IMG/VR virus record: IMGVR_UViG_2734482785_000008
Span: 1 to 64,000 of that record
Reading direction: 5' to 3' (one strand)
Source of the DNA: an uncultured virus (IMG/VR IMGVR_UViG_2734482785_000008)
Lineage: Duplodnaviria; Heunggongvirae; Uroviricota; Caudoviricetes
Length of the DNA: 64,000 nt
The first letter of the stretch is position 1, and every line of letters starts with the position of its first letter. A model generated the notes under the pieces. It worked only from the letters and a program-made list of their open reading frames with translations. It ran no database searches and had not been told where the DNA came from. This document shows, piece by piece, positions 54,882 through 55,003 of this stretch. The position numbers and the translations under genes are program-made.

Positions 54882-55003
54882 TTGCGGTGCCGGGTTCCTC
54901 CCGGTGTCCTTTGGCTGGTTATCCACCGTGGACGTGGAAACAAGGAGAAATAATGGACAGATATAACCATTTCCCCGCGTGCGCTTAGCCGCATTCACCG
55001 CAA
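54882..55003 (-). ncRNA. tRNA/C4-like structured RNA unit
   Basis: TTGCGGTG...CACCGCAA closing stem, GAATGCGGCTAAGCGCA arm, CCGGG-AGGAA-CCCGG T-arm-like hairpin. Confidence 0.65.

Follow-up and report, generated by a model that had tools for sequence, protein, structure and literature searches.

A conserved RNA unit with a variable loop in the ban operon of a P1-like phage, related to STnc100 below the family cut-off

STnc100 (RF02076) and PasD are small RNAs (sRNAs); the available excerpt of a preprint describes them as related prophage sRNAs with different seeds (bioRxiv 10.64898/2026.05.13.724894). In loci of the STnc100 type, the scaffold is followed by a DicF-like hairpin and a terminator, and it may be this 3′ hairpin, not the loop, that carries the seed and the Hfq site. 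DicF itself, encoded beside dicB, is processed by RNase III as well as RNase E according to the accessible part of a preprint on dicBF, a part in which the RNA unit examined here is not described (10.1101/2023.04.14.536235). This paper deals with 44 bases (positions 54925–54968) of a window of 64,000 nucleotides (nt), i.e. the whole stretch of DNA that was analysed, from an uncultured virus (IMG/VR record IMGVR_UViG_2734482785_000008) that is a P1-like phage. These bases make up the variable loop, together with one strand of the loop–loop helix, of a folded RNA of 126 nt encoded on the minus strand. This unit is a real, conserved and largely uncharacterised RNA fold, and a sub-threshold relative of STnc100. 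On the plus strand, the same bases look like a ribosome-binding site (RBS) plus ATG, which an earlier note, made from the sequence alone, took to be the complement of an antisense guide. The look-alike is neither a gene start nor a sign of a guide with a known target.

The fold was established by comparison of natural variants. In viral contigs, at least 119 loci were found with the 25-nt scaffold as probe. The listed loci together with the phage loci comprise at least 57 distinct units; 52 of these were aligned with the window unit (alignment A2, 53 rows), and a covariance model, R1, was built from the alignment. With five helices and a pseudoknot, 96.4% of the cells in A2 are paired, against 24–43% when the partners are slid. 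In twelve pairs both partners change, and the covariation score of 0.197 compares with at most 0.049 for the slid versions and was reached by none of 500 shuffles. Both signs of a structured RNA on the minus strand that were looked for, compensatory changes and strand-specific G·U pairs, are present. The closing helix is rich in G·U and U·G pairs (e.g. UG in eight rows and GU in eight rows at two positions); these would be A·C on the plus strand, and the RNA is therefore the minus strand. The covariance model agrees: it scores 94 bits for the minus strand and 0.9 for the plus strand. The earlier note had named the right strand.

The closing helix encloses two hairpins that recall the D and T arms of a transfer RNA (tRNA), and two longer hairpins, H3 and H4. 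In the D-arm-like hairpin, the stem pairs are invariant and thus offer no covariation to test, while one loop position varies (GCUNAG). H3 has one G·A mismatch in the window allele; the P1 reference allele, with AUUUCCCCG as its 3′ strand, pairs perfectly. The CGG/CCG base of H3 and its type-specific extensions covary, giving CGGGGAAAU/AUUUCCCCG in A-type units, CGGA/UCCG or CGGC/GCCG in B-type units and GCGGGU/ACCCGC in C-type units. The stem of H4 is formed by GUCC (54933–54930) with GGAC (54909–54906); five pairs of its equivalent in B-type units (helix 5) are changed on both sides. In the T-arm-like hairpin, one pair is U–A in 40 rows and G–C in 13.

The loops of H3 and H4 are joined. On the plus strand TGGTTAT lies at 54916–54922 and ATAACCA at 54963–54969; in the minus-strand RNA, 5′-UGGUUAU (54969–54963) and AUAACCA-3′ (54922–54916) flank AUCUGUCCAUUAUUUCUCCUU (54962–54942). 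The earlier note saw here a stem enclosing the putative guide. The complementarity is real: a perfect 7-nt complement is found in 51 of the 53 rows, in four versions (UGGUUAU/AUAACCA, UGGUUAA/UUAACCA, CAGUUAA/UUAACUG and AAGGUUG/CAACCUU), while the mean of the shuffled control is 3.9 nt. Its 5′ strand lies in the H3 loop and its 3′ strand in the H4 loop, so it is a loop–loop (pseudoknot) helix and not a simple enclosing stem.

How does the unit compare with the described systems? In a permissive Rfam scan, positions 54883–55002 (minus strand) match model positions 31–147 of 206 of STnc100 with 38 bits (E 1.9e-6), short of the Rfam gathering cut-off of 47 bits; on the same model, the sister units of P7, Rac, SfV, ST64B and Qin reach 33–44 bits. 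The scaffold features that were sought are shared, namely the closing helix, GGUGAAU at the 5′ side and the 3′ hairpin CACCGGGAGGCACCCGGCACC / CACCGGGAGGNACCCGGCACC, and so are two hairpins, one with a large U-rich loop and the other with UAACCAG in its loop. STnc100, PasD and the P1 unit are all phage- or prophage-borne, and their variable region differs between members. Unlike STnc100, the P1 unit has a second hairpin of different sequence, lacks the DicF-like hairpin and terminator after the scaffold, and is embedded in an operon 36 nt before a gene, whereas STnc100 is a free-standing sRNA gene. The sRNA that overlaps STnc100 in enterohaemorrhagic E. coli bears the name EcOnc27, or sRNA103.

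Units at dicF–dicB (Qin) and kilR (Rac) belong to the same family by both R1 and A2, and their 25-nt 5′ scaffold is identical. Like the P1 unit, they stand 27–39 nt before a small gene with a DicF-like element in the same operon; they differ in the version of the loop–loop helix (CAGUUAA/UUAACUG), in the loop itself, in a longer closing helix, and in having dicB or kilR instead of tciA. No literature joining dicF, dicB and ‘tRNA-like’, or bacteriophage P1 and ‘ban operon’, was found. The outline is also that of a class II tRNA: an ‘acceptor’ helix of 8–9 bp is joined through a linker of 2 nt to a D-like hairpin of 4 bp, two long arms follow, and a T-like hairpin of 5 bp stacks on the 3′ strand of the acceptor; the unit also shares its operon with real tRNAs. 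Against this likeness, the T-like loop has 5 nt without a TTC motif, and an anticodon loop is missing, as is any CCA or discriminator context. A tRNA or pseudo-tRNA was rejected as a candidate; ARAGORN and the Rfam tRNA model call only the three known tRNAs and not the unit.

The family is widespread. The Rac-type unit matches 4623 of 5426 complete E. coli genomes (about 85%), at a median of two places; the K-12 unit, between ydfC/dicF and dicB, is unannotated. Many lambdoid phages share the 5′ scaffold, encoded on the strand of the early-left genes; it follows cI in SfV and ST64B and stands immediately ahead of kilR in Rac-SA53. A gene starts 27–39 nt after the unit in 63 of the 84 loci with enough flanking sequence, all A- and B-type units; it encodes DicB in 39 cases, KilR in 10, TciA in seven and other proteins in seven. 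DicF (72.5 bits) or a DicF-like RNA (38–43 bits, below the cut-off) is found immediately upstream of the unit in Qin- and Rac-type prophages, and in SfV and ST64B a DicF-like hairpin follows it immediately downstream. The DicF-like element and the unit thus travel together, in either order.

In the window, positions 54400–55800 are 99.6% identical to a phage P1 isolate by sequence search, and the region matches P1, P7, D6 and further P1-like phages and plasmids. According to the P1 annotation, the studied site is within the C1-controlled ban operon, between trnT and tciA and on the operon (minus) strand; the unit is transcribed as part of this operon. The order on the minus strand is Pban, a dicF-like region, tRNA-Asn, tRNA-Thr, a gap of about 770 nt, tciA–tciB–tciC, tRNA-Ile/Met, ban and dbn. 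The gap between tRNA-Thr and tciA holds no minus-strand gene; its plus strand has the classical predictions upl and plp. The 126-nt unit ends 36 nt before the start codon of tciA (54845), and the 44 studied bases are 36–80 nt upstream of that codon. A promoter scan found no minus-strand promoter-like site upstream of the unit, and a terminator scan no terminator-like site 3′ of it. The sole clear intrinsic-terminator-like hairpin of the leader (56403–56425, minus strand; GCCCATCTTCGGGTGGGC followed by T7) ends the P1-annotated dicF-like region, so that the tRNAs, the units and tciA–ban need read-through. At 54882/54883, the P1 reference, RCS47, JL22 and other P1-like records match only from that base onward; given that many P1-like records lose homology there, the 3′ edge of the unit is a recombination joint. 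The joint separates two types of tciA leader and allele, encoding 141 (MLGILKKK...) and 144 (MFGKLFGK...) amino acids.

Within this constant frame the loop varies. In the alignment of P1, P7 and D6, identical ends TTGCGGTGAATGCGGCTAAGCGCACGCGG ... CACCGGGAGGNACCCGGCACCGCAA surround a middle that is wholly different in P7 and D6, which bears out the earlier view of a variable module inside a conserved unit; in the lambdoid units, too, the loop is replaced by unrelated sequence. The 53 sequences fall into 16 loop clusters. Another allele was seen in an RNA-library assembly (X12), in which the flanks are identical and 31 letters are changed, with several insertions or deletions (indels); these differences are confined to 54893–54974 plus two other sites, almost all of them in the variable part of the unit.

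The loop is rich in U and C; its run of pyrimidines can pair with a purine strand of the unit itself, GGGGAAAUGGU. It is this internal complementarity that makes the plus strand of the loop resemble the purine strand of the scaffold, which is itself like a Shine–Dalgarno (SD) sequence with AUG. In both the minimum-free-energy (MFE) and the centroid fold of the window allele, GGGGAAAUGGU (54976–54966) pairs with AUUAUUUCUCC (54954–54944) in an 11-bp helix of −12.5 kcal/mol; in the centroid of the P1 reference allele, H3 is closed and a 27-nt loop is open. The folding program ignores the loop–loop helix, which as a bare duplex amounts to −5.8 kcal/mol and favours the open state. The strand pairs that bear on open versus closed states are UGGUUAU/AUAACCA and GGGGAAAU/AUUUCCCC. 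The supposition that the loop is exposed therefore fits the P1 reference centroid and is not assured for the window allele, whose MFE fold pairs the pyrimidine run internally.

The plus-strand look-alike consists, as first described, of AAGGAG (54942–54947), a 5-nt spacer and ATG (54953–54955) at normal spacing. It opens a frame of 11 codons, ATG GAC AGA TAT AAC CAT TTC CCC GCG TGC GCT TAG, with the stop at 54986–54988. The pattern AAGGAG-N4–9-ATG is rare, with six sites among the 128,000 strand positions of the window, which corresponds to about 0.0014 per stretch of 30 nt. Frames of at most 11 codons follow three of these sites, the studied one included, and the motif alone is thus no mark of a gene start. 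In the OP279344-type allele, which matches the 43-nt probe used for the target searches below at 93.2%, a base change and a 1-nt insertion within the 21-nt loop close the frame after two or five codons.

What the unit does is open to several readings, of which we lean, tentatively, towards a processed cis leader module with a freely varying loop. The unit would fold co-transcriptionally as a cis-acting leader or processing module, and host RNases would cut it out of the polycistronic RNA or leave it at a 5′ end. It would thereby set the stability or translation of the following small gene, tciA here and dicB or kilR in prophages. The loop would be largely free to vary and would alternate between an open state (H3 plus the loop–loop helix) and a closed one (paired with GGGGAAAUGGU). 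One and the same P1 loop is found ahead of two different tciA leaders and alleles, and several loop clusters occur before dicB; the loop is therefore uncoupled from the downstream gene. The closing helix of Qin- and Rac-type units extends to about 18 bp (read by eye), a length that suits RNase III, an enzyme that processes the dicBF transcript (accessible part of 10.1101/2023.04.14.536235).

Several observations weigh against a cis leader with an unconstrained loop. C-type units (SfV, ST64B) are 61–280 nt away from the next gene, with the DicF-like hairpin in between. Words of the type UUAUGGGUG recur in six of the 16 loop clusters and UCCUU in four, so the loop is not wholly unconstrained; moreover, the loops of P1 and of P7/D6, otherwise unrelated, both have the anti-SD-like CUCCUU. 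The 1.2-kb stretch is contained in 14 listed RNA-library runs from five studies, and three RNA-library contig sets cover the region. These data are contigs which show neither strand nor ends, and in which DNA carry-over is possible; a processing site, a transcript end and the transcribed strand cannot be read from them. Finally, there are the relatives. PasD1 and PasD2 are Hfq-dependent and have many partners in RIL-seq (ligation of interacting RNAs followed by sequencing), i.e. they act in trans (available excerpt of PMC8550237), and the canonical copy of STnc100, located downstream of stx2B, overlaps an Hfq-bound sRNA, EcOnc27 (available excerpts of PMC12711010 and PMC12370729).

This trans action of STnc100 and PasD keeps alive a second reading, possible if on the whole doubtful, namely that of a trans-acting scaffolded sRNA. 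The unit would be freed from the operon transcript, and the loop, held open by the loop–loop helix, would be a seed that pairs imperfectly over about 7–12 nt with one or more messenger RNAs (mRNAs), as in PasD and STnc100/EcOnc27, and its target could lie outside start regions. The homology of the scaffold to STnc100, the different seeds and the Hfq dependence with many partners reported for these relatives (excerpts cited above), and the 27-nt open loop of the P1 reference centroid are consistent with this, and so is the wholesale swapping of loops between near-identical scaffolds (the 16 clusters and the X12 allele). On the other hand, the unit has no terminator or U-tail of its own, unlike typical Hfq sRNAs, the loop is paired in the MFE fold of the window allele, and in STnc100 proper the seed may reside in the DicF-like 3′ hairpin. 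No above-chance target was found among 533 phage start regions or in the ban transcript, and in K-12 the number of 14-mer matches is at control level, with an excess for the 18-mer only (see below).

A bolder form of the trans idea, which we consider unlikely, would make the whole family a natural platform for the display of guides. In this scheme, a near-invariant tRNA-like scaffold and the loop–loop helix would hold open a swappable loop of 20–48 nt, and temperate phages would exchange loops by recombination to retarget the mRNAs of hosts or rival phages. The P1 loop would truly be an anti-RBS seed, and the four units in tandem in the ban leader would form a small guide library, freed together with the tRNAs by tRNA-processing enzymes.

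Quite unlikely is the proposal of the earlier note, a dedicated antisense guide that covers the SD sequence and AUG of one particular host, plasmid or phage gene, possibly a defence gene. There is a precedent in the same phages: C4 of the P1/P7 immI region is a small structured antisense RNA that is processed from a phage operon transcript, and its loops pair with a ribosome-binding site (icd/ant). The likeness of C4 (RF01695) to the unit is one of working principle only. A C4-type RNA was rejected, with no RF01695 match at E up to 10 in 54700–55900; the model found no match in the whole 73-kb record either, in a search that was also silent in all control genomes. Complementary target sites in the same operon, as expected of a C4-like RNA, were not found in the ban transcript beyond chance. 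The complement of a strong SD, spacer and ATG is rare by chance, as noted above, and at this locus a near-perfect anti-SD, UCCUCCUUA, is also present in the P7/D6 loops; both points favour a guide. For UCCUU, the count of four clusters was reached by one of 2000 shuffles when that word alone is considered. Over all 5-mers the enrichment is not significant, as 1646 of the 2000 shuffles have some 5-mer at least as frequent.

The searches for a target speak against it. They reach near-perfect matches (about 20 nt or more, or up to three mismatches in 18–21 nt) and not short imperfect seeds. With the 43-nt target-sense probe, the 5426 E. coli genomes gave 419 matching records, all of which are the P1-like locus itself; all cover at least 80% of the probe, and 195 are in the 90–95% identity class. 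Of 88 matching phage records, 24 span at least 80% of the probe; they are P1-like loci plus four matches of 81.6% identity at E = 9. The other phage matches (E 0.7–9) are mostly start regions of Firmicute phages, and three large E. coli phages share an identity of 17 nt at E = 9. Of the plasmid matches, 381 of 414 are the locus itself and the others have E of about 7. The P7/D6 loop, used as a probe, matched only its own locus. At up to three mismatches, neither the P1 loop nor the P7 loop has a second site in the window, P1, P7, D6 or the K-12 chromosome, where the 21-mer was used. For K-12, the 14-mer gave three matches against three for the reversed control; the 18-mer gave four three-mismatch matches against none for the control, at sites that were not compared with the annotation. 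Duplex energies point the same way. Against 533 start regions of open reading frames (ORFs) of the 73-kb record the best value is −20.2, compared with −19.95 ± 1.8 for the best of shuffled loops, and along the ban transcript it is −19.2 compared with −18.2 ± 2.2. Within the reach of these searches, no natural translation-start region complementary to the loop was found, and nothing points to a guide aimed at one particular gene start. The substitution and 1-nt insertion inside the loop of OP279344, the single allele read from the 90–95% identity class, also argue against a long exact duplex. A second copy of the scaffold hairpin in the window was considered and rejected, as only chance-level matches with three mismatches were seen.

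Very unlikely, too, is an anti-SD switch in cis, in which loop segment UUAUUUCUC would pair with the SD region of tciA, GAGGGAUAA, 60 nt downstream, unless sequestered by GGGGAAAUGGU. Nine pairs are possible, two of them G·U (read by eye), the competing internal helix exists, and the P7/D6 loops carry an anti-SD before the same tciA leader. Across units, the pairing of the loop with its own downstream 50 nt is in mild overall excess (mean z −0.63; six of 47 pairs at z ≤ −2.28). However, the duplex with the tciA start region (downstream 50 nt) in the window has −9.5 kcal/mol (z −0.61) and is equalled by 23 of 100 shuffles, and in the P1 reference this loop stands before another tciA leader with another SD. 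When the long-arm region (H3 loop, H4 and flanks, 60–86 nt) was set against cognate and non-cognate downstream 600 nt, the ranks were evenly spread, in a test that proved uninformative.

Most improbable of all is a functional plus strand (a translated micro-ORF or the leader of a upl mRNA, with the minus-strand RNA as cis-antisense): the P1 annotation predicts promoters P1upl and P2upl inside tciA and the gene upl at 55041–55232, one plus-strand promoter-like site lies at 54734–54761 and upl matches PHROG families of unknown function, but promoter-like sites are at chance level (two found, 2.1 expected), the micro-ORF is broken in other alleles, the plus strand scores only 0.9 bits and the G·U pairs fit the minus strand alone, and upl and plp are without a Pfam family, replaced in P7/D6 and interrupted by a 216-nt indel between P1 lineages.

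The cis leader module that we tentatively prefer does not stand alone in the ban operon. Three diverged units lie in tandem between tRNA-Thr and the studied unit (Table 1), each with lower scores on the plus strand, which makes the leader of the ban operon an array of four RNAs of this kind. Before each unit there is a long hairpin module with arms ACAGGTAAGRGC.../...GCYCTTWCCGTTG (14–17 bp), which often contains a T-arm-like GGGTTCATATCCC or GGGTTCGAATCCC. One of these modules gave spurious matches to microRNA precursors in Rfam, and a similar hairpin module follows the unit in SfV and ST64B (about 1680–1780 of locus L005). In P7 (L004, 2212–2296) and D6 (L003, 2206–2292), a tRNA-like gene takes the place of part of the P1 array; it scores 46.6 bits on the Rfam tRNA-Sec model, whose cut-off is 47, and the D6 annotation gives it as a tRNA-Ser whose anticodon is UGA. 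The classical P1 genes upl and plp, on the opposite strand of the array, may not be real genes.

Table 1. Positions of the RNA unit, its parts and neighbouring features (window positions unless a locus is named).
Feature	Position	Strand	Remarks
Whole folded unit, STnc100-like; cloverleaf-like scaffold plus variable loop	54880–55005	−	R1 94 bits, E 2e-25; plus strand 0.9 bits
Closing helix, 5′ strand GUUGCGGUG	54996–55004	−	pairs with 54881–54889; 99.4% of cells paired; three pairs changed on both sides
Closing helix, 3′ strand CACCGCAAU	54881–54889	−	folding and alignment
Invariant small hairpin UGCG-GCUAAG-CGCA, D-arm-like	54980–54993	−	stem invariant in all 53 distinct sequences
Hairpin H3, 5′ strand CGGGGAAAU	54969–54977	−	pairs with GUUUCCACG at 54933–54941
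Hairpin H3, 3′ strand GUUUCCACG	54933–54941	−	alignment and folding
Loop–loop helix, 5′ strand UGGUUAU, in H3 loop	54963–54969	−	perfect 7-nt complement in 51 of 53 rows
Loop–loop helix, 3′ strand AUAACCA, in H4 loop	54916–54922	−	
Variable loop (‘cargo’) AUCUGUCCAUUAUUUCUCCUU, rest of H3 loop	54942–54962	−	reverse complement of AAGGAG-AAATA-ATG-GACAGAT
AUUAUUUCUCC, strand of alternative internal helix with GGGGAAAUGGU (54966–54976)	54944–54954	−	MFE and centroid fold of window allele
T-arm-like hairpin CCGGG-AGGAA-CCCGG, stacked on closing helix	54890–54904	−	helix 6, 99.6% paired
11-codon frame, judged spurious	54953–54988	+	not conserved; runs into invariant scaffold
tciA (TerB family), 36 nt downstream of unit	54411–54845	−	Pfam TerB 2e-14; phrog_632 ‘tellurite resistance’; annotated in P1, P7, D6
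Second, diverged unit	55559–55695	−	R1 24.9 bits, E 1.3e-6
Third, minimal unit	55440–55499	−	R1 15.6 bits, E 4.6e-4, filters off
Fourth, diverged unit	55163–55266	−	R1 11.4 bits, E 6e-3, filters off
Long hairpin modules	55007–55083; 55262–55367; 55500–55565; 55700–55776; 56140–56215	−	
tRNA-Thr and tRNA-Asn	55777–55930	−	same operon, upstream of unit array
upl; plp	55041–55232; 55233–55652	+	opposite strand to RNA modules; no Pfam family
DicF or DicF-like RNAs beside units of other loci	L019 750–801; L007 1424–1478; L034 622–676; L041 750–798		

For the biology of P1 and its relatives, the result is that a conserved, covariation-backed RNA fold is unannotated in a textbook phage and in about 85% of complete E. 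coli genomes, with only its distant cousins STnc100 and PasD touched by experiment. The specific anti-RBS claim has so far no target behind it. In the annotation of P1, the stretch assigned to upl and plp appears to be an array of RNA modules on the strand of the ban operon. Should the loop be a seed, P1 and the prophages would possess a module of sRNA specificity that can be interchanged. If the unit is a cis leader, its position directly before dicB in K-12 and directly before kilR in a Rac-type phage would mean an unrecognised layer of control over toxic inhibitors of cell division.

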